A stretch of 64,000 bases of DNA from assembly GCA_947302655.1 (NCBI GenBank), contig CAMYVW010000002.1, positions 233,537 through 297,536 of the forward strand, written 5' to 3'. A model generated the notes under the pieces. It was not told the DNA's origin, did not search any database, and saw only the letters and a program-made list of their open reading frames with translations. Source of the DNA: an uncultured Mycoplasmatota bacterium. GTDB lineage: Bacteria > Bacillota_I > Bacilli_A > RF39 > UBA660. Below, in pieces: positions 34,325 through 54,064 of this stretch. The first letter of the stretch is position 1. The number at the start of each line of letters is the position of its first letter. A program made the position numbers and the translations under genes.

Positions 34325-34325
34325 T

Positions 34326-36046: not shown

Positions 36047-38677
36047 ATGACTAAATATGTATACTTATTTAGTGAAGGTAATGCTGATATGAGAAACCTT
36101 CTTGGTGGTAAAGGTGCTAACCTTGCTGAAATGACTAATATTGGTCTTCCAGTACCTCAAGGTTTTACTATCACTACTGAAGCTTGTACTAAGTATTATG
36201 AAGATGGAAGAGAAATTAACTCTGAAATCCAAGAACAAATTAATGAATATATCGTTAAGATGGAAGAAATTACTGGAAAGAAATTTGGAGATGTAGAAAA
36301 TCCACTTTTAGTTTCAGTAAGATCTGGTGCTAGAGCATCAATGCCTGGTATGATGGATACTATTTTAAATTTAGGTTTAAATGAAGAAGTAGTAGAATCA
36401 ATTGCTAAACAATCTAATAATCCTAGATGGGCATGGGATTGTTATAGAAGATTTATTCAAATGTATTCTGACGTAGTTATGGAAGTTGGTAAGAAATACT
36501 TTGAAGAATTAATTGATAAAATGAAAGAAGCTAAGGGAGTTAAACAAGATGTTGAACTTTCTGCTGAAGATTTAAAAGAATTAGCTAATGAGTTTAAAGC
36601 TGAATATAAAGCTAAAATCGGTAGTGAGTTCCCAACTGATCCAAAAGAACAATTAATGGGAGCTATTAAAGCTGTATTTAGATCTTGGGATAACCCTAGA
36701 GCTAACGTATATAGAAGAGATAATGATATTCCATATTCATGGGGAACTGCTGTAAATGTTCAATCTATGGCATTCGGTAATATGGGAGATGACTGTGGTA
36801 CAGGTGTTGCCTTTACTCGTGACCCTGCAACAGGTGAAAAAGGTTTATTTGGTGAATTCTTAACTAATGCACAAGGTGAAGACGTTGTTGCTGGTGTTAG
36901 AACTCCAATGCATATAACTGAAATGGAAGAAAAATTCCCAGAAGCATTTAAACAATTTAAAGAAGTTTGTGAAACTCTAGAAAAACATTATAGAGATATG
37001 CAAGATATGGAATTTACTGTTGAACATGGTAAACTTTACATGCTTCAAACAAGAAATGGTAAAAGAACTGCTAAAGCAGCACTAAAAATTGCTTGTGATT
37101 TAGTAGATGAAGGAATGAGATCAGAAGAAGAAGCTGTAGCTATGATTGATCCTCGTAACCTTGATACATTACTACATCCACAATTTGATGCTACTGCACT
37201 TAAAAATGCATCAGTACTTGGTAAAGGTTTAGGAGCATCTCCTGGAGCTGCTTGTGGACAAATCGTATTTAGTGCTGAAGATGCTGTTAAATGGAAAGAA
37301 AATGGTAAAAAAGTCGTTTTAGTTAGACTTGAAACTTCACCAGAAGATATTACTGGTATGAAAGCTTCTCAAGGTATTTTGACTGTTCGTGGTGGTATGA
37401 CAAGTCATGCTGCAGTAGTTGCTCGTGGTATGGGTACTTGCTGTGTATCTGGTTGTGGAGATATCGCAATGGATGAAGCTAATAAACAATTTACTTTAGC
37501 TGGTAAAACATTCCATGAAGGTGATGAAATTTCTATTGATGGTACTACAGGTGTTATTTATGAAGGATTAGTTCCTACAGTTGATGCTACTATTTCAGGT
37601 GAATTTGGCAGAGTTATGGAATGGGCTGATAAATTCAGAACATTAAAGGTTAGAACTAATGCTGATACTCCAAGAGATGCTAAAAAAGCTCATGAACTTG
37701 GAGCACAAGGTATTGGTTTATGTAGAACAGAACATATGTTCTTCGAAGAAGATAGAATTGCTGCATTTAGAGAAATGATTTGTGCAGATACAGTTGAAGA
37801 AAGAGAAGCTGCACTTGATAAGATTTTACCTTATCAACAATCAGACTTTGAAAATATGTATGAAGCCCTTGAAGGTGATTCAATGGTAGTTAGATACTTA
37901 GACCCACCTCTACATGAATTCGTTCCAACTGAAGAAGCTGATATTAAAAAACTTGCTGATGCTCAAGGTAAATCAGTTGAAAGAATTAAAGAAATTATTG
38001 ATGCACTTCATGAATTTAACCCAATGATGGGTCATAGAGGATGTCGTTTAGCTGTTACTTATCCAGAAATAGCTAAGATGCAAACTAAAGCTGTTATTAG
38101 AGCTGCTATTAATGTTAATAAGAAACATCCAGAATGGAATATAACTCCAGAAATTATGATTCCTCTTGTTGGAGAAGTTAAAGAGTTAAAATATGTTAAA
38201 GATGTAGTTGTTGCTACAGCTGATGAAGAAATTAAAAATGCTGGAGTTGAAATGAAATACCAAGTTGGTACTATGATTGAAATTCCAAGAGCTGCTTTAA
38301 CTGCTGATGAAATTGCTAAAGAAGCTGAATTCTTCTCATTTGGTACTAACGACTTAACTCAAATGACATTTGGATTCTCAAGAGATGATGCTGGTAAATT
38401 CTTACCTGCTTACTATGAAAAGAAAATTTATGAAGAAGATCCATTTAAGACACTTGATCAAACTGGTGTTGGTCAATTAATTAAAATGGCTGCTGAAAAA
38501 GGAAGAAGCACTAGACCTGAACTTCATTTAGGAGTTTGTGGTGAAACTGGTGGAGATCCTAAATCAATTGAATTCTATAATGCTGTTGGACTAGATTATG
38601 TATCTTGCTCACCATTTAGAGTTCCAGTTGCTAGACTTGCTGCTGCACAAGCTGCAATTAAAGCAAAGAAGAACTAA
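36047..38677 (+). CDS. ppdK: Pyruvate, phosphate dikinase.
   Basis: 876 aa with the PEP-utilising enzyme mobile-domain motif GGMTSHAAVVARGMG and the nucleotide-binding N-terminus. Full-length PPDK. Confidence 0.9.
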   Translation: MTKYVYLFSEGNADMRNLLGGKGANLAEMTNIGLPVPQGFTITTEACTKYYEDGREINSEIQEQINEYIVKMEEITGKKFGDVENPLLVSVRSGARASMPGMMDTILNLGLNEEVVESIAKQSNNPRWAWDCYRRFIQMYSDVVMEVGKKYFEELIDKMKEAKGVKQDVELSAEDLKELANEFKAEYKAKIGSEFPTDPKEQLMGAIKAVFRSWDNPRANVYRRDNDIPYSWGTAVNVQSMAFGNMGDDCGTGVAFTRDPATGEKGLFGEFLTNAQGEDVVAGVRTPMHITEMEEKFPEAFKQFKEVCETLEKHYRDMQDMEFTVEHGKLYMLQTRNGKRTAKAALKIACDLVDEGMRSEEEAVAMIDPRNLDTLLHPQFDATALKNASVLGKGLGASPGAACGQIVFSAEDAVKWKENGKKVVLVRLETSPEDITGMKASQGILTVRGGMTSHAAVVARGMGTCCVSGCGDIAMDEANKQFTLAGKTFHEGDEISIDGTTGVIYEGLVPTVDATISGEFGRVMEWADKFRTLKVRTNADTPRDAKKAHELGAQGIGLCRTEHMFFEEDRIAAFREMICADTVEEREAALDKILPYQQSDFENMYEALEGDSMVVRYLDPPLHEFVPTEEADIKKLADAQGKSVERIKEIIDALHEFNPMMGHRGCRLAVTYPEIAKMQTKAVIRAAINVNKKHPEWNITPEIMIPLVGEVKELKYVKDVVVATADEEIKNAGVEMKYQVGTMIEIPRAALTADEIAKEAEFFSFGTNDLTQMTFGFSRDDAGKFLPAYYEKKIYEEDPFKTLDQTGVGQLIKMAAEKGRSTRPELHLGVCGETGGDPKSIEFYNAVGLDYVSCSPFRVPVARLAAAQAAIKAKKN

Positions 38678-38690
38678 TATAAATAATTAA

Positions 38691-38717
38691 AGACTAGGTA
38701 AAACTAGTCTTTTTTTA
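38691..38717 (+). terminator. ppdK terminator, followed directly by the extended -10 TGaTATAAT at 38718-38726.
   Basis: AGACTAGgtaaaaCTAGTCT plus T7. This hairpin-plus-promoter module recurs at each cassette junction. Confidence 0.7.
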
Positions 38718-38743
38718 TGATATAATTTATGTAGGTGATAATT

Positions 38744-39277
38744 ATGACAATTAATTATTCTGATCAAGAAGTTATAAAAAATCAGAAATCTATATTTTTA
38801 GCTGGCCCAACTCCAAGGGGTGAAAATGTTATATCTTGGAGAACTAAAGCTTGCAATATAATAGAACAACTAGGATTTGATGGAATAGTATATGTTCCAG
38901 AATATTCAACATGGAAACCCAAAGCAGATTATGTAGATCAAGCACAGTGGGAAAGAGACGCATTATCCAATGCTTCAGTAATAGCTTTCTGGATCCCAAG
39001 AACATTACCAGATATGCCAGCATTTACAACAAATGTAGAATTCGGTTATTGGTTACATACTGGTAAAGTATTATATGGAAGACCTGATGATGCTAAAAAG
39101 ATTAAATACCTTGATTGGTTATATAAAACTGATACAAATAAAACCCCATATTCAAGCTTAGAAGAATTATTATATGGTTCTATAAAATTAGCAAACCAAC
39201 TTGGTGTTAATGATGAAACAGAAATATTAACATTAGAAAAAAGATTGATTATGAGCAAAAGTAATCATAATAAATGA
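38744..39277 (+). CDS. Nucleoside 2-deoxyribosyltransferase-like protein (cassette 1).
   Basis: SIFLAGPTPRGE N-terminus plus ASVIAFWIPR...FTTNVEFGYWLHTGKVLYG resembles the Nuc_deoxyri_tr2 fold. RBS AGGTGATA and an ATG lie 17 nt after the -10. Confidence 0.5.
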   Translation: MTINYSDQEVIKNQKSIFLAGPTPRGENVISWRTKACNIIEQLGFDGIVYVPEYSTWKPKADYVDQAQWERDALSNASVIAFWIPRTLPDMPAFTTNVEFGYWLHTGKVLYGRPDDAKKIKYLDWLYKTDTNKTPYSSLEELLYGSIKLANQLGVNDETEILTLEKRLIMSKSNHNK

Positions 39278-39340
39278 CATGTCAAAAAAACAAGGCCTAG
39301 CCATGTAGAAATAGTATGTATTTTAGAAAGGAAATAAGAA

Positions 39341-39964
39341 ATGAAAACTATTTATTTAATAAGACATTCTGCGCCTTTTATTGAAATAGAAAATTATGAA
39401 GATTATAAAAATGTTCCATGGAATGATTATAATCGAAATATGATTCTTTCTAGTGAAGGTGAAGAAAAAGCAAAAAGGCTTTGCGAATTAGATGAATTAA
39501 AAGATTTAGATTCTATATATTCGGCTGATTCATTTAGAGCAATCGGTACTGCAAAATTTGTTGCAGAGATGAATAATTTAAAGATAAAAATAGATACCAG
39601 AATAAATGAAAGAAATCTTGGAGTAAATACTATTAGTGAATTACCTGATAATCAAACAATAAAATCATTTAGTAATAAAGATTATAAATTTGGAAATGCT
39701 GAATCACTTAATGAAATGGATAATAGATTCAATTCGTTTATAAAAGATGTATTAAGAAGTGATAATAATAAAATAGCATTATTTATTCATGGAATAATAA
39801 TGATGTCTTTTCTTCAAAATAATACCGATTTTTCTTTTGATGGTAAAAATATGAAATTATTATTTAATGATAAAGAAGTATATAATGATAAAATGATAAA
39901 TCCTATGGTTTTTAAAATAGAATATGAAGATACTAGAATAATAAACGTTGAATTTATTGGATAG
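39341..39964 (+). CDS. Histidine phosphatase (PGAM-like) family protein.
   Basis: MKTIYLIRHSAPF is the catalytic RHS/RHG N-terminus. A conserved His lies near the C-terminus (FIHG). Confidence 0.7.
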   Translation: MKTIYLIRHSAPFIEIENYEDYKNVPWNDYNRNMILSSEGEEKAKRLCELDELKDLDSIYSADSFRAIGTAKFVAEMNNLKIKIDTRINERNLGVNTISELPDNQTIKSFSNKDYKFGNAESLNEMDNRFNSFIKDVLRSDNNKIALFIHGIIMMSFLQNNTDFSFDGKNMKLLFNDKEVYNDKMINPMVFKIEYEDTRIINVEFIG

Positions 39965-40103
39965 GAATGACTTAGCAATAATACGCTAAAAACTAGGAAA
40001 ATTTTATTAAGATGAATTATTTCCAGAAACTAAAAAAACTTATGATTTATTAGTTATTATTAAAGATGTTAAAATAATATTAACTCTATGGAAGGAATTA
40101 GAT

Positions 40104-40742
40104 ATGAAAACAATTGTATATATTTCAAGACATTCTTTAACTTTAAAAACGAAAGTATTAAATGAAAATCAGAGCAGTGTTATTCAAAACATAAAAACTC
40201 CATTATCGGTTAAGGGTGAAGAAAACGCTAAAAAATTGAGTGAATATATCGAGTTAAGCTCAGTGGATGCTGTTTATTCTAGCAATTATACAAGAGCAAT
40301 TTCTACTGCAAAATATATTGCTAATAAAAATAACTTAAATGTAATAGTTGACTATAGATTTGGAGAAAGATTACATGGTGTAAAGAATGATTATAACGAA
40401 CTTCCATATGACTTTGAGATGATGCAATTAAAGGACGAAAACTATAAATATGGAGAAGGTGAGTCAAGGAAAGAAGTTACAGAGAGAATGAGAACTGCAT
40501 TATTTGATGCAGTAAATACAAATGCTGGTAAAACTATTTATATCACCTCTCATTCAACTGCTATGATGGATTTATTTATTTCATTTGGTTATGCAAAAAT
40601 TGAAGATGGTAGGTTTAGTATAATTGTTAATGATATTGAATTATTAAATAGTGATTTTGAATGGAATACTAATTCTCCCGAACTTTTTAAACTTGACTTT
40701 GAAGATGATAGATTGGTAAATATTAATTATGTTAAATGGTAA
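40104..40742 (+). CDS. Histidine phosphatase (PGAM-like) family protein.
   Basis: IVYISRHSLT catalytic motif with ITSHS near the C-terminus. It is a paralog of the gene at 39341, but divergent. Confidence 0.7.
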   Translation: MKTIVYISRHSLTLKTKVLNENQSSVIQNIKTPLSVKGEENAKKLSEYIELSSVDAVYSSNYTRAISTAKYIANKNNLNVIVDYRFGERLHGVKNDYNELPYDFEMMQLKDENYKYGEGESRKEVTERMRTALFDAVNTNAGKTIYITSHSTAMMDLFISFGYAKIEDGRFSIIVNDIELLNSDFEWNTNSPELFKLDFEDDRLVNINYVKW

Positions 40743-40875
40743 TTTCTATATGTTACTGTATAGTTGGTATTTACCAACTTCTTTTATGTATTAGAATATT
40801 GTGTAAAGTTAACGTATTAATATCAATGTGAAAGTAAATTTTGATATAATGTTTATAGTAAGGAAGTGTGGTCAA

Positions 40876-42513
40876 ATGGAAAATAAAGTCTTTTTAGAAT
40901 TATCTGAAGATGAGAATCTTAAAAAAATGAATATTGATCCACTTTTAGTTGATTCTTTTAAAAGGGTTATGATAAAGATTCAAGAATACTTTGACGCTAA
41001 TGGGTATACTGATGAAATTGATTTTAATTCTATTGTAAAAGAATATATAATGCCTCGTGATGTTGTTGATAAAGATACAGTAAGAAGTAATGAAGAATTC
41101 ATCACTTCACTTAACAGTGCAAAAAAAGCCTACAACGATTTAGAGAAACTTTTTGGTGCAAAATTACCACCATTTAGTGATGAGGATTACTTGTCGAATT
41201 ATATTCAAAAAAACTATAATGTAGGTTTGTGTATTACTGTTTCCTCAAATAGCAGTAGTTTTTATGATAATTATGGTCAGTACGAACCTTCTGTTAATCA
41301 GATAATTATAAATAAAGCTTCAAATGTTTTTAATTCAGACGAGCTAGATAGAGTAATATGTCATGAATTTATTCATTGTTTAACAATGTGTGGCAGTCCA
41401 TCTATTAGTTCTGTTAGTGATGAGATGCCAAGTGTTATGTTTGAGCCAATAACTGAAATGATTTCATCCGAAATAATTGGAGAAGGTATTCCACATTCAT
41501 ATAGAAGTTTTTGTAAGATAATTAAATATATGAATAAAATCGCTGGAGTTAATGACTATAGTTCTTTTTTAAATAGGAAACTTGATTCTAGGTATAATTC
41601 ATTTACATCAGTAATTGACTTAATGGATAATGCGTTTAATAAAGGAAGTTTTAATGAGGACCGTAAATATGGTGTGATTAATAAAGAAGATATGGTAAGT
41701 GTACTTACATCCATTACAAGTGAGCTTGTAATTAGAAATTATAGTGGTGTTGATGATTTGATTGATAACCTAATTCATATTTATAGTTTAAAGGGAGATC
41801 TTTCAATTGATACAATAAAAAATATCCAAGAAATAATCGTAAAGAGTTATTTATCTAAAAATAGAATTTCTGATGAGATAACGGCACAAAAAATAATGCA
41901 ATTATTAGAAGTAAAAAATACTCGAAGATTGATAGATGGTAGAGAGTTTTCTACAATTGATATCGATGGTACAAATTACTACGTTGATAGAAATGGTGGT
42001 ATTTATTACCATGATGAAAATGTTATTAATAAACTTTCTTTCGCTGCATTAGCACATGATTTAAATAATGGGACATTGCTTATAGGTAGTGGTTCTACAT
42101 TCAAAGGCTTTGATTTATCAAGCATGGATTTTAGTAAACTTGGAGATAGTTTAGAAGAAAAACAAAAGCTATTGGAAAGTGAAATAAGTTTATTAATAGG
42201 AGGTAAGAAATTGAATAGACCATATATAAAACAAAGCGTTATATCTATAATTGAATCTAGAGATAAAGCTATTACACCTAGCAAGCAGGAGTATAAAAAG
42301 AAGCTTAAAAGACCATACATTAATCCTGCTACTAAATCTTTACTTGAAGAAAAGATTAAATCATTCGAATTTGAAAAAGAGAGGGAAAAATTATTATCTC
42401 AAAAAAACAATATTCAACAGATTATGACAGAACAGCAGTTACTTGCTAATCAACAAGCTGTAATGGCTTCTCTTGAAGAACAAGATGAACAAGATATGAG
42501 TATGGGAATGTAA
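40876..42513 (+). CDS. Hypothetical 545-aa protein with an HExxH motif (putative metallohydrolase-like).
   Basis: VICHEFIHCL contains HExxH. It has a Q-rich C-terminus. Own promoter TTGATATAAT at 40844. No ppdK-type repeat lies upstream. Confidence 0.4.
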   Translation: MENKVFLELSEDENLKKMNIDPLLVDSFKRVMIKIQEYFDANGYTDEIDFNSIVKEYIMPRDVVDKDTVRSNEEFITSLNSAKKAYNDLEKLFGAKLPPFSDEDYLSNYIQKNYNVGLCITVSSNSSSFYDNYGQYEPSVNQIIINKASNVFNSDELDRVICHEFIHCLTMCGSPSISSVSDEMPSVMFEPITEMISSEIIGEGIPHSYRSFCKIIKYMNKIAGVNDYSSFLNRKLDSRYNSFTSVIDLMDNAFNKGSFNEDRKYGVINKEDMVSVLTSITSELVIRNYSGVDDLIDNLIHIYSLKGDLSIDTIKNIQEIIVKSYLSKNRISDEITAQKIMQLLEVKNTRRLIDGREFSTIDIDGTNYYVDRNGGIYYHDENVINKLSFAALAHDLNNGTLLIGSGSTFKGFDLSSMDFSKLGDSLEEKQKLLESEISLLIGGKKLNRPYIKQSVISIIESRDKAITPSKQEYKKKLKRPYINPATKSLLEEKIKSFEFEKEREKLLSQKNNIQQIMTEQQLLANQQAVMASLEEQDEQDMSMGM

Positions 42514-42522
42514 GGAGAAAAT

Positions 42523-42846
42523 ATGGAAAAAGAATTTTTATTAAAAAAAGAAGATATAAAACCATTAATTAAACTTGGGTTTAGTTGTATAGCATCTGAT
42601 AGAATTACGCTAGATGGTAAAAAAGTAGGTTATATGTATAGAGAAGGTTCAACAAGCCAATCTGATACTGGATGGAGATTTTTTGCTGGTGATGAAAATG
42701 AAATCTATACTGATAATCCTGATAATTTTGAAATATACGATTTAAATACAATATGTAATTATGATAAGGATATTATTCCCTATCTAACTAAACCAGTTGG
42801 ATCTAAATTAGAGAGAAACGGAACTGAATTTACTGAAGTTGACTAA
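42523..42846 (+). CDS. Small hypothetical protein (107 aa), possibly a DUF2185-like immunity-type protein.
   Basis: Translationally coupled to the upstream HExxH protein (9-nt gap, RBS AAGGAG). The GWRFFAGDE motif is reminiscent of DUF2185. The assignment is uncertain. Confidence 0.35.
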   Translation: MEKEFLLKKEDIKPLIKLGFSCIASDRITLDGKKVGYMYREGSTSQSDTGWRFFAGDENEIYTDNPDNFEIYDLNTICNYDKDIIPYLTKPVGSKLERNGTEFTEVD

Positions 42847-42859
42847 TAATAATTAAAGA

Positions 42860-43045
42860 TTGTTTTGTATAAGTTTTATTCTTAGAAAGAAAATAACTAT
42901 GATTAAAAGCATTAATAAGGTTGATACAAATATGGAACCATATAATAGTATTGAAGATTTATTATTATCATCAATTTTTAAGGCGAATGAAGTTGGTATT
43001 AATTATGAAAATGAAATGCTTCCTTTACAAAAAAGAAAATTATAG
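42860..43045 (+). pseudogene. 3' remnant of a nucleoside 2-deoxyribosyltransferase-like cassette gene.
   Basis: KVDTNMEPYNSIEDLLLSSIFKANEVGINYENEMLPLQKRKL aligns with the C-terminus of the 38744 gene (KTDTNKTPYSSLEELLYGSIKLANQLGVNDETEILTLEKRLI). It lacks the N-terminal two-thirds. Confidence 0.55.
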
Positions 43046-43056
43046 AAATGATAGTA

Positions 43057-43107
43057 TTTTAATTTCATATAACTTTTACTCCCTTCCATGATGGAAGTAC
43101 AAGCTGC
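43057..43107 (+). repeat. 51-bp perfect direct repeat (left copy) ending in the ppdK-end-like core CAAGCTGC.
   Basis: ttttaatttcatataacttttactcccttccatgatggaagtacaagctgc is identical to 43638-43688. Confidence 0.8.
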
Positions 43108-43184
43108 TATCAAGCAAGGAAGTAAAAATTAATTTCTAAGAGATTAAGTGAAAACTTAATCTTTTTCTATGATATAATTATTAT

Positions 43185-43637
43185 ATGTTGGTGATAAATG
43201 TGGAAACAAAATATGAATTTTTTATAGCAGGTAAAACTAGAAATAAGAATAATATTTTAAAAATATGTGATATTTTTGATAAATATAATATTTCTTATTA
43301 TTGTTTTTTAAAAAATGATGATACTATGAACAGTTATGGTGAAGAAGGCCAAACTGAAGATGAAAAAATGAAAGTGTTTGAAAATCTTGGCTTAAAAAGT
43401 GATATTGTTTTAAATATATTTAAACAAGATTTAGATAACGAAAAAGCATGTAAAAATTTATTATTGGTTCTACCGGCTGGTAAATCTGGTCATATTGAAG
43501 CTGGGATAGCATATGGTATGGGTAAAAAATGCTATGCGATTGGTGAATTTGATGCCACTGATTCATTATATAATATTTTTGAAAACATCTTTGAAAGTGA
43601 GCAACAATTAGAAGAGTTTTTAAAACAATATAATTAG
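43185..43637 (+). CDS. Nucleoside 2-deoxyribosyltransferase-like protein.
   Basis: FIAGKTR N-terminus and LVLPAGKSGHIEAGIAYGMGKKCYAIGE resemble the C-terminal catalytic-Glu region of the PF05014-type fold. The true start may be the GTG at 43200, after RBS GGTGATA. Confidence 0.5.
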   Translation: MLVINVETKYEFFIAGKTRNKNNILKICDIFDKYNISYYCFLKNDDTMNSYGEEGQTEDEKMKVFENLGLKSDIVLNIFKQDLDNEKACKNLLLVLPAGKSGHIEAGIAYGMGKKCYAIGEFDATDSLYNIFENIFESEQQLEEFLKQYN

Positions 43638-43688
43638 TTTTAATTTCATATAACTTTTACTCCCTTCCATGATGGAAGTACAAGCTGC
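43638..43688 (+). repeat. 51-bp perfect direct repeat (right copy).
   Basis: Identical to 43057-43107. It starts immediately after the stop codon of the 43185 gene. Confidence 0.8.
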
Positions 43689-43710
43689 AATTAAAGCAAA
43701 GAAGAATTAA
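43680..43710 (+). repeat. ppdK-3'-end-like core (near-identical to the ppdK terminus).
   Basis: acaagctgcaattaaagcaaagaagaattaa compared with ppdK acaagctgcaattaaagcaaagaagaactaa. It is followed by the hairpin agactaggtaaaactagtct, identical to the ppdK terminator. Confidence 0.8.
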
Positions 43711-43768
43711 TAAATAAGGACTAGGTAAAACTAGTCTTTTTTATGGTATAATGTGGATAGGCGATAAT

Positions 43769-44281
43769 ATGGAAAAAATAATTACAAATGATTATAATCT
43801 AAAAGATGAAGATATGACTGAACTTGTAGTAAGAGTTAAAATATTATTAATTAATAGTAATAATGAAATTCTATTAGGTTATTCACATAATGAGTATCAA
43901 TGTCCAGGTGGTCATGTTGAAGAAGGTGAAAATCTAATAAGTGCCATTAATAGGGAAGTGCAAGAAGAGACAGGTATTGAATTAAATATTAAAGATGCTG
44001 AACCGTTTGCATGCTCAATAGGCTATTATAAGGATTGGCCAGCAGTTGGTAAAAATAGAAAGATTGAAATTTATTATTACGAGATTAAGACAGATGAAAG
44101 ACCGAATCTAGATAATACAAAGTATACTGAATCAGAAAAGAATGGTAATTTTGAATTAAGATACATTCCAATAGAAAACGTGGAAAATGAGTTTATTAAA
44201 AATGCTGAAATCTATGAAGATAAACACGGTATAGCAAAAGAAATGTTAAAAGTATTTGAAATATATAAAAATATAAATTAA
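43769..44281 (+). CDS. NUDIX hydrolase.
   Basis: Nudix box GGHVEEGENLISAINREVQEETGI. The ATG at 43769 is preferred because the 43751 ATG overlaps the -10 box. Confidence 0.75.
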   Translation: MEKIITNDYNLKDEDMTELVVRVKILLINSNNEILLGYSHNEYQCPGGHVEEGENLISAINREVQEETGIELNIKDAEPFACSIGYYKDWPAVGKNRKIEIYYYEIKTDERPNLDNTKYTESEKNGNFELRYIPIENVENEFIKNAEIYEDKHGIAKEMLKVFEIYKNIN

Positions 44282-44310
44282 TATACAAGTCATCTTAGCC
44301 TTAATCGGCT

Positions 44311-44353
44311 CGAACTTACCTATAGTGCAAGCTGCAATAAAAGCAAAAAACAA
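44311..44353 (+). repeat. ppdK-3'-end-like core (degenerate).
   Basis: cgaacttacctatagtgcaagctgcaataaaagcaaaaaacaa. Confidence 0.7.
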
Positions 44354-44480
44354 CAAGTAATTAAACTAATAAAGACTAGAGAAATCTAGTCTTTTTTGTT
44401 CAGAAAATAGTAATATTGTGATTACTAAAAGTAAGAAAAAAAGTATATTCTTGTGATATAATGAATATGAGGTGTAAACT

Positions 44481-45224
44481 ATGAATGAGTATATTAATTT
44501 AGATGAAAAGAATATTGATGAAGAACATATTTGTTGTGCAATAGGAGATCCTAAACATCAAGATGGTGTTGATAAAAAGAAAGAATGGATTAAAAGCAAA
44601 TTAAAAGATGGTCATGTATTTAGAAAGTTAAATGCAAGAGGTAAAATCTTTATTGAGTATGAACCAATAGAAACTGCTTGGGTTCCTATCAATGGTAAAA
44701 ACTATATGCATATTTATTGTTTATGGGTAGCAGGTAGTTTTAAAGGAAAAGGTATTGGTAAAGAATTATTAGAATATGCTATTGAAGATGCAAAAAATAA
44801 AAAAATGAGTGGTGTATGTACATTAGTATCACAAAAGAAGAAACCATTTATTGGAGATAAGAAATTCTTTGAACATTATGGATTTAAAGTAGTTGATACA
44901 ATTAATGACTATGAATTAATGGCATTACAATTTGATGATAAAGAAGCGCCTAAGTTTAGTGATAGTGCTAGAAAGATGGAGATTGATAGTCAAGATTTCA
45001 CTATATATTATTCTAATGAATGTCCATATGTTGAATATGAAGTAAAAGAGTTATCTGATTATGCTAAAGATAAAGGCATTAAGTTAAACTTTATAAAAAT
45101 AGATTCATTAGAGAAAGCTAAAAATGCTCCATGTGTTTTTAATAATTGGGCAAACTTTTATAAAGGAAAGTTTGTTTCAAATACAATATTAAATGCAAAT
45201 GCATTTGAAAAATTGATTAAATAA
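44481..45224 (+). CDS. GNAT N-acetyltransferase with a YoaP-like C-terminal domain.
   Basis: CLWVAGSFKGKGIGKELLEYA is GNAT motif A. The C-terminal ~100 aa resemble the YoaP-like domain. Confidence 0.6.
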   Translation: MNEYINLDEKNIDEEHICCAIGDPKHQDGVDKKKEWIKSKLKDGHVFRKLNARGKIFIEYEPIETAWVPINGKNYMHIYCLWVAGSFKGKGIGKELLEYAIEDAKNKKMSGVCTLVSQKKKPFIGDKKFFEHYGFKVVDTINDYELMALQFDDKEAPKFSDSARKMEIDSQDFTIYYSNECPYVEYEVKELSDYAKDKGIKLNFIKIDSLEKAKNAPCVFNNWANFYKGKFVSNTILNANAFEKLIK

Positions 45225-45320
45225 AATGATCGTAATATTTTAAGATTGCGATATCCTTGTTATAATTAACTAGATAAGCAATTTAGTTAATATTAGTTTA
45301 GCTTCCCAGCTTTGACATTA

Positions 45321-45353
45321 TTGCAAGCTGCAATTAATGCAAAAAAGAATTAA
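45321..45353 (+). repeat. ppdK-3'-end-like core (degenerate).
   Basis: ttgcaagctgcaattaatgcaaaaaagaattaa. Confidence 0.7.
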
Positions 45354-45428
45354 TATATAATTATTAGAAGACTAGAGAAATCTAGTCTTTTTATGATATA
45401 ATAAAAATATATTCGGGGAGGTTTACTT

Positions 45429-46373
45429 ATGAAAGATTTTAGAAAAATAGATGATAAACTATATTATGCAAAATATTGTGATAAGAAAGTTGGTAATCCA
45501 AAAGAAATTTGGAGTTCAATTAAAAGTAATAGGGAATTATTAGAATGGGCAATCAAACCAACTAAAGATAAATTTGGAGAAAGAGATTTAGTAAATGGTT
45601 TAGCAATATGTGAGGATATGCTTGTTGATTTTAATAATGTTGATAATGAAGTGTATCAAAAACTTGTAGACTTGATTTATTCTAATAGACAAATTGCTAG
45701 AATTGTTTTAGATGGTTATAGTAATGGTGGTTATTCATATTTACTGATGACTTTATGGAATCCTAATTTAAAACTAACAGAATATCAAAAAGCATTTGCA
45801 GTTGATGAAGCAATGAATAAAATTGGTACTACTAGATATGAAAATGCTAAGAATGAATATTCTAAAAAACTAGATGAAAAAGGCATTACAGATGAACAAA
45901 CTATGTATACTGAATTTGGTGGGTCCATTAATCCTGTAGGTGCTAAAACTGGTAATATGTACATGACTAGTTTATTTGGTTCATTAAGTGATACTCAAGC
46001 TCATGGTTCAGGAGATTTTGATATAAGATATTGGATACTTAGAAATCCAAATTGGTCATTCGAAGAAAAACAAAAACTAATTATTGATTTTTGGTTTAAT
46101 GACGAAGATTATGACGAAACATTAGAACAATGGGAATGGGGTATTGTTAATGATCATGCAAATTATAAAGGAAACCCAATGCCTTTGTTTGATAGAGATG
46201 AATTGTATGAGTATTCTTATGATGGATTATTAAAGTTCTATGGTGATAAAGAAACTACAGATAGAATATGGGAAGAAATCCAATTTTGTAAACAAATGCA
46301 TCAATTAAGACCTCAACAATGGGAATTAGAATTTGTTAAACCAAGAGTTTTAGAAAAAATAATACAAAATTAA
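45429..46373 (+). CDS. Hypothetical protein (314 aa).
   Basis: ORF with RBS GGGGAGG after the repeat, terminator and promoter module. No family recognised. Confidence 0.45.
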   Translation: MKDFRKIDDKLYYAKYCDKKVGNPKEIWSSIKSNRELLEWAIKPTKDKFGERDLVNGLAICEDMLVDFNNVDNEVYQKLVDLIYSNRQIARIVLDGYSNGGYSYLLMTLWNPNLKLTEYQKAFAVDEAMNKIGTTRYENAKNEYSKKLDEKGITDEQTMYTEFGGSINPVGAKTGNMYMTSLFGSLSDTQAHGSGDFDIRYWILRNPNWSFEEKQKLIIDFWFNDEDYDETLEQWEWGIVNDHANYKGNPMPLFDRDELYEYSYDGLLKFYGDKETTDRIWEEIQFCKQMHQLRPQQWELEFVKPRVLEKIIQN

Positions 46374-46476
46374 AAAATTACACAATTAAAGAAACAAAAT
46401 TATTGTTATAAAATAACATAAATAGTTATCTTAGTCCGCGAATTGGTTCTTTATTGTTCTAATCTTTACTGTCGGG

Positions 46477-46500
46477 CAAGCTGCTATTCGTTCTAAGCAA
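46477..46500 (+). repeat. ppdK-3'-end-like core (most degenerate copy).
   Basis: gggcaagctgctattcgttctaagcaa. Confidence 0.5.
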
Positions 46501-46637
46501 TCTAAATGAAATATGCATAAAGGCTGAGTAAAATCAGTCTTTTTCTATGTTCGGAAAATAGAAAATTTTACGATTACTCAAATTATTAAAAAAAATCAAA
46601 AAACGTGTTATAATTATATATATAATAGGAGTTGCAT

Positions 46638-47924
46638 ATGAAAAAGAAAGTTATAATTATAAGTTCAATAACATTAGTATTTGTTTTGGCAGTGGCATTA
46701 ATAGTTTTATTGGTATTTAATAAAGATAAAGATTTAAATACAGAAAAAGAAAAATTTGATAATGAAATTGTTTCGATATTAACTATTGATGTTAATCCTA
46801 GTATTGAAATAAACTTAAATAAAAACAATATTGTTGTTAGTGTTGTTGCTTTAAATGATGATGCTAAAGTTGTTACTAATAATTTAAATTATGAGAAAGA
46901 AAAATTAGAAAATGTTTTATCAATGTTGGTTGATTCTTTAAAACAAAATAATTATTTATCTGATGAAAATAATTTAATACTAATTAATGTTGATTCAAAA
47001 GATGAAAAATTATTGGAATTGGTTAAAAATAAAACAAATGAATCGTTAGAAAAAAATAAAGTTAATGGGGAAATAGTTATACAACAAGTTGAAGAAACTA
47101 GTGAATTGAAAGAATTAGCAGAAAAAAATAATATTACAATTTCAAAAGCATATTATATTCAAGAACAAATAAAAAATGAAGAAGGTTTAAAGGTAGAAGA
47201 CTTTAAGGATACATCTATAACTGAAATAAAAGAAAAAATAAATAATTACAAACAAGAACAGGAACAAAAGAAACAAGAAGAACTAAAAGAAAAGACAACG
47301 ACAAAACAAACAAACACTAATACAAGTAAAAATACAACACCAAATACTAACACAACAACTCAAAAGGTGACTAAGACTTATACATGTACACCACCAAACG
47401 ATTTAAAAGATACTGAATGGTGTAACTGGAATAATAAAAGACCTCAAAGTTGTGAATTCTATTATGATGATATTAGTACTGATAAAGTCAGAGGGTACGC
47501 ACTTTCTCGTTATAATTTAGATGATTCAGCCAGTACTTATATTACAACCCAAGAATATAAAGGTGCTTCTTACTGTAGAGCACATATTGTAAAAATTAAT
47601 ACTTCAAGTGAAAAAATTATAAGTTATTGGGATTCACATACTGGAGAATTCTTAAAAGAAAAAAGAGAAACCGCTCCAACCTATATTAGTACCGAGACAG
47701 CCCAGACAGTTGCTAAAAATTATATTAAGAATAATAAAAATAACGCTTTTGATGAAGCAGAAATAAAGTATTCTGAAGTTAATAGTGGAACAGATCGTGA
47801 TGGTGGACCAGATGAATATTATAGACATCAAGTATTATTTATAATGAATGACGGTACTCATTATACAGTGGATGTAGATGCTGTAACAAAAGAAGTTAAA
47901 TACTACCGTACATGGACAAATTAA
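46638..47924 (+). CDS. Hypothetical membrane-anchored or secreted protein with a T/N/Q-rich linker.
   Basis: N-terminal TM IIISSITLVFVLAVALIVLLVF followed by a KTTTKQTNTNTSKNTTPNTNTTTQ linker and a C-terminal globular domain. Confidence 0.45.
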   Translation: MKKKVIIISSITLVFVLAVALIVLLVFNKDKDLNTEKEKFDNEIVSILTIDVNPSIEINLNKNNIVVSVVALNDDAKVVTNNLNYEKEKLENVLSMLVDSLKQNNYLSDENNLILINVDSKDEKLLELVKNKTNESLEKNKVNGEIVIQQVEETSELKELAEKNNITISKAYYIQEQIKNEEGLKVEDFKDTSITEIKEKINNYKQEQEQKKQEELKEKTTTKQTNTNTSKNTTPNTNTTTQKVTKTYTCTPPNDLKDTEWCNWNNKRPQSCEFYYDDISTDKVRGYALSRYNLDDSASTYITTQEYKGASYCRAHIVKINTSSEKIISYWDSHTGEFLKEKRETAPTYISTETAQTVAKNYIKNNKNNAFDEAEIKYSEVNSGTDRDGGPDEYYRHQVLFIMNDGTHYTVDVDAVTKEVKYYRTWTN

Positions 47925-48050
47925 AAAAAGAAGAGTCTAGTGATACAAACTAGACTTTTTGAATGTTCGCAATATTTTTGTTTTTACGAACACAGATACA
48001 TGATATAATTAGTTTGGATAAGCAATTTAGTAAAAATATAGTTTTGCTAC

Positions 48051-48097
48051 CCGAACTTGCTTATAGTACAAGCTGCAATCAAGGCAAAGAAGAATAA
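48051..48097 (+). repeat. ppdK-3'-end-like core (close copy).
   Basis: ccgaacttgcttatagtacaagctgcaatcaaggcaaagaagaataa compared with ppdK agacttgctgctgcacaagctgcaattaaagcaaagaagaactaa. Confidence 0.8.
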
Positions 48098-48157
48098 GTA
48101 ATAATTAAGACTAGGTAAACCTAGTCTTTTTTATGTTATAATTGAGTTGGTGATAAT

Positions 48158-48514
48158 ATGAAATATAATTTTGACATAAATAATAGAGCTTTTAATGCTA
48201 TTAAAAATAAAACTAAAAGAGTAGAAATTAGAACTACTAAATTGGGTAAAAATCATTTTGACTATGGCATTCTAAAAAGTGGAGATAAAATTATATTTAA
48301 ATCATATGATGGTGAAATAATTAATTGTGTAGTTGGTGATGTTAATCATTATGATTCAATTGAGGAATTATTAACACTTGAGGGAACAAGATATACATTA
48401 TCATCTACAAATGATTTTAATGAAGGTATTAAATCTATCAATAGTATAAATGGTTATGAAGAAGCAATAAAAGTTAATGGCGTGTACGCTATACATATTA
48501 CACCTATAGAATAA
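48158..48514 (+). CDS. ASCH (PUA-like) domain protein.
   Basis: KTKRVEIRTTKL...SGDKIIFKS...GVYAIHI matches the ASCH beta-barrel pattern. The size (118 aa) is typical. Confidence 0.45.
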   Translation: MKYNFDINNRAFNAIKNKTKRVEIRTTKLGKNHFDYGILKSGDKIIFKSYDGEIINCVVGDVNHYDSIEELLTLEGTRYTLSSTNDFNEGIKSINSINGYEEAIKVNGVYAIHITPIE

Positions 48515-48545
48515 TTAATTATAAGTCATTTTAGCCTTAATCACC

Positions 48546-48593
48546 CCTAACTTGCCTATAGTACAATCCGCAATTAAAGCAAAACAAACTAAA
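48546..48593 (+). repeat. ppdK-3'-end-like core (degenerate).
   Basis: cctaacttgcctatagtacaatccgcaattaaagcaaaacaaactaa. Confidence 0.7.
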
Positions 48594-48675
48594 TAATTAC
48601 AATTAAATCAAGAAAACTAGTTAACTTCATACAACCTAGTTTTTTTATGATATAATTTACGTGTAGGTGATAAGT

Positions 48676-49152
48676 ATGGATTATCAATTAGCAAAAGTTA
48701 AATATCAAGCTAAAGATAAGTTATATAGACTTCTTGAATACTCATTATATGAAGGCTCTTTTTATATGGATAAAGATGTAAATGATGAATGTTTATTTGA
48801 ATATAAGTGGTTTGATAATTATTTTACTGATGATGATAGAGATGCCTATTTTATTAAGACTAATAATAAATATATAGGTTATGTTATGGTTAACGAAAAT
48901 TTAAAATTTAATAAGTGTGGAAAGTGTATTGCAGAGTTTTTTATTATGCCTAAGTATAGAAGAAATCATGTAGGTAAGAATGTTGCTTTTGAAATATTTG
49001 ATATGTATCAAGGAGACTGGGAAGTTCAACCTATGGAAAATAATATAAATGCATATTCTTTTTGGAGTAACATTATAAAAGAATATACCAATGGTAATTA
49101 CACCATAAAGAATGATGGTATTGAAGATGTTTTTATTTTTAAAAGCAGATAG
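48676..49152 (+). CDS. GNAT-family acetyltransferase.
   Basis: FFIMPKYRRNHVGKNVAFEIF is a motif A-like segment. Confidence 0.5.
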   Translation: MDYQLAKVKYQAKDKLYRLLEYSLYEGSFYMDKDVNDECLFEYKWFDNYFTDDDRDAYFIKTNNKYIGYVMVNENLKFNKCGKCIAEFFIMPKYRRNHVGKNVAFEIFDMYQGDWEVQPMENNINAYSFWSNIIKEYTNGNYTIKNDGIEDVFIFKSR

Positions 49153-49194
49153 TTAATTCTTTTTTATTAGTTTTATAATTTAAGGAGTCATTAT

Positions 49195-50085
49195 ATGGAA
49201 TTATTAAAAGCTAAAACAATTTTATCTAAGGTAAACTATGGTAATGATTGGTACGGTGTAGATTATAATATAAATCTTTATAGAGGATGTTCTCATGGCT
49301 GTATTTATTGTGATAGTAGAAGTAATTGCTATCACATAGATAATTTTGATGTTCCAAAAGGTAAAGAAAATGCCTTATTAATACTTGAAAAAGAATTATC
49401 TAAAAGAAATGATCATGGTGTAGTAGGAATAGGTTCTATGTCTGATACTTATAATCCTTTAGAAATAAAGCATGAACAAACAAGAGGAACTTTAAAGTTA
49501 TTATCTAAATATAATTATGGTGTATCTATCGATACTAAAAGTGATTTAATATTAAGAGACTTAGATTTACTTAAAGAAATAAATTCTAAAAATAACGTTA
49601 TTATTAAATTTACTATAACAACCCCAAATGATGAATTATCTAAAATAATTGAACCTCATGTTTGTGTATCTTCAAAAAGATTTGAAGCTATTAAAAAGTT
49701 ATCTGATAATGGTATATTTGTTGGAATAATGATGAATCCAGTTTTACCATTTATTACTGATAGTGAAGAAGATATAATAAAACTAGTTAAGTTTGCTCAT
49801 GATAGTGGTGCTAAATTTATCCATACATTTATGGGAATGACATTAAGAGAAAATCAAAGAGATTATTACTTTGAAGAACTTGATAAATATTTTAAGGGAT
49901 TAAAAGAAAAGTATATTAAGTATTATGGACAAAGTTATAATTGTGCTGTTCCTAATTATAAATCATTATATAAAGCGTTTACTAATGAGTGTGATAAATA
50001 TAAAATACTTTATAATATGAAAGATATTATAAAAACCTATAAAAAAGAGATAAAGGATGATAATGAACAAATATCATTATTTTGA
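49195..50085 (+). CDS. Radical SAM protein, SplB/COG1533 (DNA photolyase-like) family.
   Basis: NLYRGCSHGCIYCDSR carries the CxxxCxxC cluster in the context characteristic of COG1533. Confidence 0.6.
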   Translation: MELLKAKTILSKVNYGNDWYGVDYNINLYRGCSHGCIYCDSRSNCYHIDNFDVPKGKENALLILEKELSKRNDHGVVGIGSMSDTYNPLEIKHEQTRGTLKLLSKYNYGVSIDTKSDLILRDLDLLKEINSKNNVIIKFTITTPNDELSKIIEPHVCVSSKRFEAIKKLSDNGIFVGIMMNPVLPFITDSEEDIIKLVKFAHDSGAKFIHTFMGMTLRENQRDYYFEELDKYFKGLKEKYIKYYGQSYNCAVPNYKSLYKAFTNECDKYKILYNMKDIIKTYKKEIKDDNEQISLF

Positions 50086-50155
50086 TAAAATAGTTATTAA
50101 TTAATTGCAATACATAAATTAAGTATGTTAAAATATGCGGAAATGGGTGGGTTTT

Positions 50156-51178
50156 ATGAAAAAAACAAAAAGATTAAAAAAAATAGAAAATAAAAACAAT
50201 AAAAATACTTATGATGCCATAGTTGATATTGTTTCTTATACAGAAAATATTCAGTATTATTCTTATAAAAGAGAAGATTATAAAGAACTTGTTCTAAATG
50301 CACTAGTTAATAATTCTTCTTCAATTAAGTATGTTTCACCATTATCAAATGATTATGCATTTTTTTGTGAGGAAGCAGTAAAACAAGACTATCAAAATTT
50401 CCTGCTTATAAATGATAGTGTTACTAATTATAAAGAGCTTGGAATTAAAGCAATTTTAGTTAATCCTTTTGTTGTATGTGATTTACCAAAATTTTCAAAA
50501 TATTATTATTTCTTTTGGAAGCTTGCTGTATTTAATTGTTTTAGTGTTTTAATGTCAATTAAAGAAGATAATAAAGAGTTATTTTCTTTAATAGCTATAG
50601 CACTTGATAAAGAACCTAAAGCTATTTTATATGTTGACCATGAATTATCTATATACAATAATTTATGCAAGTTTGCTTATAGTAAAGATGTTGAATCTGT
50701 TGATTATATGGATATAAATTATGTAGATAAAAAACTTGCTTTAGAAATAATTAAAAGAGATCCTAAAAAAATTGATTGTTTAAATATAGATAGTCCTTAT
50801 TATAACGAAGCTTGGAGGCTTGCAGTTAGTTTAAATAGTGAATTAATAAATACTGTTTGTTTTCATAATATGGAACAAAGACTTGATTTTTTCTTAGAAT
50901 TAATTAATTCTATAAAATTAGAGAATCCTGGTATTATGAAAAGTTATAACGTTCTTAAAGCTTTATATTTTAAAAATAAACGTGATAAAGAAAAAGTTAT
51001 TAATTCATGTGATTCACCGGATGAAGAATTTTTCAAATTGCTAGGTGATTTAGATAATGACGGTAAGTTATTATATAAAAAATTATTAGAGGCACGTGAA
51101 AACTTTTATAAATCATCTAAATCAAATAGCTATATTTATTCAGAACATGAATGTCCTATTAGAGTTAAAACTAGGTAA
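50156..51178 (+). CDS. Hypothetical protein.
   Basis: ORF. The ATG at 50156 is preferred, after RBS GGGTGGG. No family recognised. Confidence 0.4.
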   Translation: MKKTKRLKKIENKNNKNTYDAIVDIVSYTENIQYYSYKREDYKELVLNALVNNSSSIKYVSPLSNDYAFFCEEAVKQDYQNFLLINDSVTNYKELGIKAILVNPFVVCDLPKFSKYYYFFWKLAVFNCFSVLMSIKEDNKELFSLIAIALDKEPKAILYVDHELSIYNNLCKFAYSKDVESVDYMDINYVDKKLALEIIKRDPKKIDCLNIDSPYYNEAWRLAVSLNSELINTVCFHNMEQRLDFFLELINSIKLENPGIMKSYNVLKALYFKNKRDKEKVINSCDSPDEEFFKLLGDLDNDGKLLYKKLLEARENFYKSSKSNSYIYSEHECPIRVKTR

Positions 51179-51228
51179 TGTTATATAACCTAGTTTTTTT
51201 ATGTTATAATTTACGTGTGGGTGATAGT

Positions 51229-51810
51229 ATGAATCTTATATTTTTAAGACATGGTGAAGCAACTGATAATGTTAAAGAACTAATCTCTGATAAAGAAATT
51301 TACTGGTCTATATTAACTGATAAAGGAATAAAAGATGTAAAAGAATCAATTGAGTTATTACCAAGTAATATAGATATAGTTTATGTTTCACCACTTCCAA
51401 GAACAATTCAAACAGCTCATTTTGTTTATGAAAAATATCCTCATTTAAACTTTTTAATAGATGATAGAATTAGAGAAATACAATATGGTAAATATTCTCA
51501 TTTTAAGAATAATGAAGAATTAGATGAAACAAGAAAAAAACAAATTGCTGGCGATTATTTAGTTAGATTTGGTGACTACGGTGAAAATAAGCTAGATATT
51601 GAAAGAAGATTATCAAATTTTTTAATTGATATATCTAAAAGTAAATATGAAAATGTATTAATTGTATCTCACGGATCAGTGATATCTTATATGAAGAGAT
51701 TATTAGATTTAAAATCTTCACATATTAAAAAAGGTGAAATAGAAATATTTAATGATGTAGATTTTAATTATTTATTAAAGTATCAAGATATTCTTGATAG
51801 ATTTAAATAG
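51229..51810 (+). CDS. Histidine phosphatase (PGAM-like) family protein.
   Basis: MNLIFLRHGEATDN is a canonical RHG catalytic N-terminus with a VSHG C-terminal His. It is preceded by the terminator-plus-TGtTATAAT module. Confidence 0.75.
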   Translation: MNLIFLRHGEATDNVKELISDKEIYWSILTDKGIKDVKESIELLPSNIDIVYVSPLPRTIQTAHFVYEKYPHLNFLIDDRIREIQYGKYSHFKNNEELDETRKKQIAGDYLVRFGDYGENKLDIERRLSNFLIDISKSKYENVLIVSHGSVISYMKRLLDLKSSHIKKGEIEIFNDVDFNYLLKYQDILDRFK

Positions 51811-52601: not shown

Positions 52602-52629
52602 AAAAACTAGATTTTTTAAATCTAGTTTT

Positions 52630-53118: not shown

Positions 53119-53213
53119 ACTATCACCATATAAATTATAATATATATTTATTTAAAAAAACAATTTCTTTTTTTAAAATTTTCTGCTATAGTATGTACCT
53201 GAAGGATGATTTT

Positions 53214-53936: not shown

Positions 53937-54064
53937 TAATAAGACTATAAAATTATAGTCTTTTTTTGATATAATATTAATAGAGTAGTAATTAACTCAA
54001 CTTCCAGTTCGTATAAATATTTAAATGATTATTGTATATTTATAACCAGAAAGGAGCAATTCAC

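Follow-up and report, generated by a model that had tools for sequence, protein, structure and literature searches.

A repeated ppdK tail and the cassettes it bounds

The window analysed here is the whole of a 64,000-nucleotide (nt) stretch of DNA from an uncultured Mycoplasmatota bacterium (contig CAMYVW010000002.1, positions 233,537 to 297,536 of the forward strand). Its G+C content is about 25%, and the + strand holds nearly all of its genes. The element that concerns us is a row of small accessory genes that starts at ppdK, the gene for pyruvate phosphate dikinase (876 amino acids, aa; 36047..38677, + strand), the 3' end of which is the attachment site of the array. We think it probable that this is a ppdK-anchored cassette array with a bank of accessory genes, similar in kind to an integron or to the staphylococcal cassette chromosome (SCC), in which defence is one cargo class among several, and that its host belongs to a low-GC lineage of Bacilli from rumen and gut that has not been cultured. 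A preliminary description of the same DNA had taken the genes from 38744 to 51810 for cassette cargo of a ppdK array, a view that the repeats described below bear out, and had further proposed that they form a phage-defence or counter-defence toolkit, a proposal that fared less evenly.

The last 26 nt of ppdK, CAAGCTGCAATTAAAGCAAAGAAGAA (38648..38673, + strand), consist of its final codons and make up core copy 0, an attB-like sequence with its putative crossover at about the step from GTA to CAAGCTGCAAT. At no more than three mismatches this sequence occurs five times in the window, ppdK's own copy included, against none expected by chance; the further copies lie at 43681, 44328, 45324 and 48069, and degenerate ones are found at about 43100 and at 48564. 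Core mismatches tend to climb with distance from ppdK (0, 0, 3, 2, 2 and 6), and past 48.6 kb the cores are gone and terminator-promoter modules are all that is left. What is repeated is ppdK coding sequence joined to a cassette-specific arm, and this combination is confined to the array. Dyad symmetry around the core is weak, with 14 of 25 positions symmetric at attB.

Each cassette opens with the right half of the core of about 26 bp, continues through a hairpin terminator and a predicted TGnTATAAT promoter to one or a few co-oriented genes, and closes with a 3' arm of about 40-55 nt, which often begins AAGTCATTTTAGTC, and the left core half. The first such opening module (38689..38726, + strand) comprises the hairpin terminator AAAGACTAG-N6-CTAGTCTTT with its T-run and then the TG-extended -10 element TGATATAAT; it recurs at each cassette start, in keeping with the earlier claim that the cassettes carry promoters of their own, as far as such motifs can indicate. 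TGnTATAAT modules with a T-run also stand before ordinary genes of the window, so the promoter-like motif reflects the general design of this organism. The genes had also been described as uniformly monocistronic, and this did not hold: multi-gene units exist, namely unit A with five to six genes, unit D with two and unit F with four.

Proceeding away from ppdK along the + strand, the junctions are an arm of type 3 with the hairpin CTTCCATGATGGAAG and a partial variant core (43057..43113); an arm with a core copy free of mismatches (43638..43706); an arm with a motif, AAGTCATCTTAGCC, resembling the U motif introduced below and a core with three mismatches (44284..44353); two arms whose cores carry two mismatches each (45294..45349 and 48025..48094); and an arm with the U motif and a degenerate core with six mismatches (48520..48589), the last recognisable junction. 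A terminator and promoter module without a core stands at 51167..51226, also on the + strand. Its 60 nt, which span terminator, promoter, ribosome-binding site and start, are 88% identical to 48613-48672, and the two copies precede unrelated genes, a third histidine phosphatase and a GNAT protein, respectively. This shared module suggests that expression modules may have been swapped between cassettes.

The cassette-junction pattern was used to scan metagenome contigs, and the L-numbers given here are labels of contigs and metagenome-assembled genomes (MAGs). It matched 74 contigs, 70 of them at 21-30% G+C and most with two to four junctions; ppdK lies directly upstream in 11 of the 70, at 62-94% aa identity. 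The 54 repeat-bounded units have a median length of 992 bp and hold a single gene in 33 cases. Among the 88 open reading frames (ORFs) in bounded units, which represent 73 families, 84 are co-oriented with ppdK. Window cassettes reappear in these sister arrays in changed orders: the cassette for a 150-aa protein in L085, L142 and L190; that for a 118-aa ASCH-like protein in L087, L106, L142 and L147, at about 95% aa identity and in other contexts; the GNAT-YoaP cassette in L093 and L114 at 97% aa identity; the radical SAM gene in L114 and L128; and a block of nucleoside 2-deoxyribosyltransferase (NDT)-like and histidine phosphatase genes in L140 and L114.

Where one cassette is found in different contexts, homology ends within the core at either side of the cassette, at about the step from GTA to CAAGCTGCAAT; the downstream gene takes the tail, hairpin and promoter with it, and the upstream gene takes the 3' arm. 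In L113 the ppdK tail diverges immediately past CAAGCT. Across 108 unique junctions, AGTA and, beyond the break, CAAGCTGCAATTAAAGCAAA are nearly invariant, 57 have the U motif AGTCATTTTAGTC at a constant distance of 40 or 55 nt upstream of the core, and 75 have a hairpin. Homology breaks inside the core, which therefore points to site-specific recombination.

PpdK itself is 84-88% identical at the aa level to the PpdK proteins of three low-GC MAGs (L001, L002 and L053). A look-up of the exact protein gave no match, and in a scan of genome contigs its relatives reach at most 88% identity. The closest genomes with PpdK show no synteny downstream of ppdK, and a test with their own ppdK tails showed no arrays; a later scan found one cassette junction in L001. 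With only 40 of the 330 sister-array ORFs matching anything in the window, and no synteny downstream of ppdK in the closest genomes, the cargo is not core metabolism kept in synteny.

Cargo of the window and of its sister arrays

Nearly all of the domain calls made in the preliminary description are confirmed by Pfam, profile or fold matches, and the ATG starts at 38744, 43769, 48676 and 51229 are better than the longest-ORF starts. Against curated NCBIfam models no array protein reaches a cut-off or an equivalog-level name. All cargo genes from 38744 to 51810 lie on the + strand. Both full-length proteins that had been called 2-deoxyribosyltransferase-like belong to the NDT superfamily, the larger by Pfam and fold, the smaller by its profile. 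The former (38744..39277; 180/177 aa) matches PF15891, Nuc_deoxyri_tr2, at E=7e-15; its AlphaFold2 (AF2) model has a pLDDT of 78.6, and its best folds in the PDB are the putative NDT 4MCJ (E=1.8e-7, TM 0.63/0.73) and bona fide NDTs. A search gave 2002 homologs, all PF15891 among the matches listed. Elsewhere the gene follows that for a TRAM methyltransferase (L161, L167 and L172, with different neighbours in L167) or secA (L165), and in L162 an NDT-like homolog lies in a variable region with ASCH, CYTH, dCMP deaminase and histidine phosphatase genes. Homologs 39-51% identical to this protein are also encoded by jumbo phages, namely phage G (gp334, JN638751.1:244487-244879) and the megaphages LR756511, LR745208 and LR756502.

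The 150-aa protein (43185..43637), with the motif LPAGKSGHIEAGIAYGMGKK, has no Pfam match, and hhalign against the 180-aa family was not significant, which leaves the two without detectable sequence kinship. It has 1574 homologs, and an exhaustive search gave 225 relatives. A profile built from 26 distant relatives matches the CMP N-glycosidases BcmB (4JEN, E=6.4e-6) and MilB (6e-4) and, weakly, NDTs, and it is on account of these matches that we place the protein in the NDT superfamily; the family's ...HxEAGxA..GKK stretch aligns with the segment of BcmB and MilB that holds the catalytic Glu. As for structure prediction, which bore out the NDT fold of the 180-aa protein, an AF2 run on a shallow alignment reached a pLDDT of 47 for the 150-aa protein. 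Neither protein reaches a named NCBIfam equivalog; going by superfamily, both are probably nucleotide N-glycosidases.

Three histidine phosphatase paralogs (39341..39964, 40104..40742 and 51229..51810) match His_Phos_1 at E=6e-16 to 1e-23 and share 29-34% mutual identity. As had been proposed, they are genuine members: the branch-1 catalytic set R-H...R...E...H is intact, with R8, H9, R66, E90 and H150 invariant in all three. The third is about 83% identical at the nt level to L089 9795-10279. Between the second and the 150-aa gene lie a rare 545-561-aa protein with an HEFIH (HExxH) motif (40876..42513, also placed at 40828), which has only five homologs and is SprT-like by way of one distant homolog, and a 107-aa protein with an Imm33 immunity-protein domain (42523..42846; Pfam E=1.9e-32). 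A PDB search with the 561-aa protein was uninformative. The HExxH protein always precedes Imm33 (window 40876-42846; L170:3937-5899), the pair being kept at 38% identity, and the pair adjoins an Abi_2 gene in L170, a contig without array cores, and in L171. Since the HExxH gene is conserved with Imm33 beside an Abi_2 gene, the two may be a candidate toxin-immunity or defence pair.

Unit A, 4.2 kb long, is 97.5% identical (38733-42908) to L172:7860-12036, where a TRAM/U5-methyltransferase gene is immediately followed by the NDT-like gene, two histidine phosphatase genes, the 545-aa gene and Imm33, and the ppdK tail is absent. This identity indicates that a chromosomal block has, by all appearances, recently moved into or out of the array. 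The HAD gene downstream of the block in L172 is deleted in the window, leaving a 61-aa remnant ORF (42860..43045). The earlier description of this ORF as a 2-deoxyribosyltransferase-like fragment stands for its C-terminal part, which shares 43% identity with the C-terminal end of the 180-aa protein, and fails for its 5' part, which is the start of the deleted HAD gene.

The remaining cassettes are shorter to describe. The NUDIX hydrolase at 43769..44281 was rightly recognised (Pfam E=2e-12), and its Nudix box GX5EX7REUXEEXGU is intact (GHVEEGENLISAINREVQEETGI). Two GNATs were likewise correctly called by Pfam standards, one with a YoaP domain (44481..45224) and a weak second one (48676-49152). 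A two-gene unit (45429..47924) encodes a 314-aa unknown and a 430-aa protein with an RsgI_M-like domain by Pfam (46632). The 118-aa ASCH-like protein (48158..48514) has no Pfam match at E<0.01; phmmer relates it to PH0355 (2Z0T, 1.4e-4) and PF0455 (1S04, 2.5e-3), both of which we take to be ASCH-type structures. The radical SAM protein (49195-50085), with its CxxxCxxC motif, had been called SplB-like; it does belong to the broad radical SAM family, and it is not SplB proper, scoring 19 bits against TIGR04070 (spore photoproduct lyase), which has a cut-off of 400. Its nearest NCBIfam families are PA0069 and Rv2578c, both below cut-off, and we class it as a COG1533-type enzyme. A DUF4116 protein by Pfam (50135-51178) completes the series, and together with Imm33 (42523), the RsgI_M-like domain (46632) and the SprT-like HExxH protein (40828) it had been missed before. 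The window cargo most likely acts on nucleotide pools, modified bases and small molecules, if family membership is a guide.

Sister-array cargo is broader. Pfam searches on 76 non-redundant proteins identified GNATs, HTH regulators, uracil-DNA glycosylase (UDG), Fic, Bro-N, PHP, SMODS, NADAR, Ham1, HAD and IMPase; other cargo includes a P-type ATPase, a Na/H exchanger with a NUDIX protein, an acyltransferase, Imm33, DUF2625, ABC-F ATPases and a peptidase. The commonest sister cassette has two genes, for an HTH protein of about 90 aa and a Bro-N protein of about 285 aa (for instance L115 oriented 550-1681), and was seen in L085, L104, L105, L115, L119, L122, L123, L124, L132 and L146. In L190 (10619-12592), genes for a radical SAM-SPASM protein and for HMUDK_hel, presumably the helical domain of the 5-hydroxymethyl-dU DNA kinase, which is known from thymidine hypermodification in phages, lie within a unit that also holds NDT-like and 150-aa genes.

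Against the PADLOC database, the 20 array proteins of the window gave shared-domain matches and no defence system: the NUDIX protein to PDC-S07 (Nudix box only), NDT_II-A at E=0.0095, the dCMP deaminase described below to the dCTPase deaminase domain, and HTH. The 76 sister proteins, by contrast with this, match 46 families of PADLOC-DB 2.0 at E<=1e-5 (families counted, not proteins), several below 1e-100, compared with nine generic-domain families (best E=6.7e-29) for 45 window proteins from outside the array, taken as a control. The sister-array matches include a CBASS-type cyclase (1.2e-90), a 4TM effector (2.3e-46), PDC-S13 (5e-110), PDC-S22 (2.5e-115), PDC-S04 (four members), PDC-S51 at full length (3.4e-115), S32, WYL and a Tmn-like NTPase. 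Judged by these protein-level model matches, some sister-array genes are bona fide defence genes or candidates for that role. Defence and nucleotide enzymes make up part of a broad sister cargo without being its theme, so that defence counts as a real cargo class, though a partial one. The toolkit proposal is hence supported in part: sister arrays have defence-model matches, and in the window no protein goes beyond a shared generic domain. The preliminary description was right to flag the cargo as unusual, and the window genes are not yet linked to defence.

Beyond the last cassette, distal variable genes without cores occupy 51909..54670 on mixed strands: a 230-aa unknown, a dCMP deaminase (52630-53118, the sole minus-strand gene of the variable region), a CbiH-like methyltransferase (53193-53936) and an HTH membrane protein (54032-54670). 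The dCMP deaminase matches the deaminase domain of anti-phage dCTP deaminase models, yet is ComEB-sized, and the methyltransferase resembles precorrin-3B C17-methyltransferase (199 bits against a cut-off of 246) and stands alone, with no other cobalamin genes near. From about 54.8 kb follows a conserved right flank (cyclophilin, Nudix, HtrA, PfkB and two tRNAs), several genes of which are common to contig L155; an Rfam scan found the two tRNAs and nothing else. Upstream of ppdK lie housekeeping genes for a ylqF-like GTPase, RNase HII and topA. The interval between topA and ppdK (31282-35555) holds three ORFs of 328, 649 and 413 aa that match no Pfam family and, in the PDB, nothing beyond a match between a short stretch of the 413-aa protein and an IgA protease chain (E=1e-6); related contigs have xerC and/or tk in this interval.

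Proposed recombination at the core and competing explanations

We propose that cassettes would enter and leave the array by site-specific recombination within about CAAGCT(GC). Insertion beside ppdK would restore the end of the gene and shift older cassettes downstream, where the cores of displaced cassettes would decay. The right half-site is identical in ppdK and in the cassette sites, from which we infer that integration would remake the target beside ppdK. The enzyme would most likely be a large serine recombinase (LSR), acting in trans and supplied by integrative elements that share the site: LSR-encoding elements would take the ppdK core as their att site, and the mini-cassettes would be non-autonomous users of that core.

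LSR genes do abut or overlap cores in sister contigs. L092 (oriented 780-2620) encodes a complete 573-aa LSR that ends 94 nt before a core and matches SPbeta SprA, TP901-1 and a conjugative-transposon recombinase; in L081 (1-1036) a partial LSR gene stops 72 nt short of a core; and L190 (1931-3703) encodes a 586-aa Resolvase+Recombinase protein that shares 56% identity with the L092 LSR and has its stop codon within a core and small phage-like ORFs upstream. Truncated LSR remnants are found in L105, L112 and L138. The LSRs of L190, L092 and L081, whose genes end at or inside the core, are the best candidates for the array recombinase. A scan of viral contigs with an LSR query gave no close relatives.

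A tyrosine recombinase of the Xer type was also considered, since xer lies just upstream of ppdK in four contigs (L089, L143, L053 and L155). These Xer-like genes are orthologs of the topA-linked XerC of L162, one occurs in L053, which is array-less, and the gene is missing from the window; Xer was accordingly rejected as the array enzyme. Three Xer/integrase queries run by tblastn, and a Pfam scan of the ORFs on the flanks, revealed no tyrosine recombinase in the window.

Several points weigh against the cassette-array reading. The 64-kb window yielded no recombinase at all, by tblastn with Xer and LSR queries and by Pfam on the flanks (the ORFs at 1-23 kb lay outside the Pfam scan), and LSR genes or remnants are present in about six of some 80 array-bearing contigs. 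Serine integrases do not as a rule act between two attP-like sites, so the model does not account for the excision of internal cassettes. Some rearrangements bypass the core, including a GNAT-radical SAM fusion in L114, the swaps of promoter modules and unit A, a chromosomal block of 4.2 kb. As regards the cargo, enzymatic roles are read from superfamily membership, and the PADLOC tally is one of families.

The explanation closest to the preliminary description is that the window cargo serves primarily in anti-phage defence or counter-defence, for example by depleting nucleotides, by destroying modified phage nucleotides or by degrading NAD, ADPR and cyclic-nucleotide signals. The defence content of the sister arrays (the CBASS-type cyclase, 4TM effector, PDC-S04/S13/S22/S32/S51 and Tmn-like NTPase, together with UDG, NADAR, Ham1 and Fic) speaks for it, as do the Abi_2 gene beside the 541-aa and Imm33 pair in L170 (though on a contig without array cores), the resemblance of the 150-aa protein to hydroxymethyl-CMP hydrolases, and the L190 array, where NDT-like genes lie beside radical SAM-SPASM and HMUDK_hel genes. 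Integron cassettes have moreover been documented as defence biobanks (bioRxiv 10.1101/2024.07.02.601686), and DNA glycosylases have been reported to be antiviral (bioRxiv 10.1101/2025.10.29.685425). We nonetheless hold this explanation to be unlikely, given that no window cassette goes beyond a shared generic domain in PADLOC, that the 180-aa NDT-like gene occupies ordinary chromosomal sites in L161, L167, L172 and L165, that its jumbo-phage homologs fit nucleotide metabolism, that GNAT, histidine phosphatase and Nudix are generic housekeeping or detoxification families, and that transporters and peptidases are found among the sister cargo.

It is also conceivable, if quite improbable, that there is no cassette system and that the array is the debris of LSR-encoding prophages or integrative and conjugative elements (ICEs) that decayed at a ppdK att site, the apparent cassettes being surviving att-proximal moron genes. 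LSR genes with small phage-like ORFs upstream at junctions (L092, L190), the truncated remnants within three arrays, the core degeneracy that grows away from ppdK and the first unit of L113, which spans 6.7 kb and 10 genes, would all fit such decay. Against this, intact single-gene units of about 0.5-1 kb, both ends at a core, recur in varied orders and neighbourhoods, the 3' arms belong to a small number of conserved types with constant spacing, and the 33 single-gene units each have their own predicted promoter and terminator; scans of viral contigs with the junction pattern gave two matches, neither of which fits the extended core, so that no viral contig scanned bears a junction. Finally, one might see in these genes ordinary core or salvage metabolism, syntenic downstream of ppdK, with repeats that are terminators duplicated by homologous recombination. 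The T-run and TGnTATAAT modules before ordinary genes and the five-gene block at a normal chromosomal site in L172 lean that way; the absence of downstream synteny at ppdK in the closest genomes, a cargo that differs in almost every array, and a repeat that consists of ppdK coding sequence and a cassette-specific arm and is found in arrays alone render it highly improbable. A ppdK-anchored cassette array, with defence as one of its cargo classes, is the reading that we retain.

Comparison with known systems

Streptococcal cis-mobilizable elements (CIMEs) are att-flanked elements without recombination genes that pile up, by tandem accretion, at housekeeping-gene 3' ends, and the ppdK cassettes are likewise att-flanked, free of recombination genes and stacked at a gene's 3' end. 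CIMEs come as one or two multi-kb elements derived from ICEs with tyrosine recombinases, whereas the arrays described here are made of promoter-carrying single-gene cassettes. In staphylococci, SCC elements are inserted by the serine recombinases CcrAB and CcrC at the 3' end of rlmH (orfX) and also form pseudo-SCC composite islands. As is generally known of SCC, insertion occurs at a conserved gene's 3' end with regeneration of that end and a direct repeat at every junction, such as we find here, elements accumulate in tandem, and elements lacking a recombinase are presumably mobilised in trans; for the recombinase, the LSR genes that abut or overlap cores in L092, L081 and L190, with remnants in L105, L112 and L138, are candidates. 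Unlike SCC, whose islands measure 3-60 kb, the ppdK array is composed of mini-cassettes of about 0.5-5 kb, its target is ppdK, and it combines dozens of cargo families with a standard terminator-promoter module.

Among cargo proteins, the comparison of interest is with the NDT superfamily (NDT, DNPH1/Rcl, BcmB/MilB), with which the 180-aa protein shares the NDT fold and the 150-aa protein the ...HxEAGxA..GKK motif; unlike the named members, both fall below equivalog level, and they show no detectable sequence kinship to each other.

In the papers searched we found no report of a ppdK-anchored cassette array, the nearest concept being that of integron cassettes as defence biobanks. Pressing the proposal further, one may conceive of an undescribed gene-capture platform of uncultured gut and rumen Bacilli, analogous to integrons in function and different in construction, with an LSR att site at the ppdK stop region, self-expressing cassettes and a stockpile of miniature immune systems, in which the NDT-like, histidine phosphatase, Nudix and ASCH cassettes of the window and its SprT-like/Imm33 pair would be new single- or two-gene effectors against phages, with phage nucleotide pools or modified bases as their targets; we offer this as a tentative and somewhat unlikely extension. 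If the cassette-array reading is true, the 26-bp core would be a simple sequence handle by which small accessory genes with expression signals of their own could be collected in their thousands from uncultured Bacilli, and the arrays would be a source of compact candidate defence and nucleotide-modifying enzymes.

The closest parallel is with sedentary chromosomal integrons, which also consist of long series of co-oriented, mostly single-gene cassettes beside a fixed attachment site, with a recombination site bounding each cassette, the same cassettes shuffled among arrays, and a very diverse cargo, rich in GNATs and unknowns, that includes miniature defence systems. The differences are equally clear. 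No IntI-type tyrosine recombinase, no attI and, judged by junction sequence, no attC was found in the window; the junctions are a conserved 26-nt ppdK tail, unlike attC, an imperfect palindrome whose structure is conserved and not its sequence; each unit appears to have its own terminator and promoter motif, unlike promoterless integron cassettes that share a common Pc; and the candidate enzyme is an LSR in a low-GC Bacilli lineage, integrons being, to our knowledge, essentially a Gram-negative phenomenon. If our reading is true, a separate platform with integron logic is abundant in rumen and gut metagenomes, an abundance already visible in the homolog counts of the two cassette families searched, and integrons and ppdK arrays would represent the convergent evolution of cassette banks.

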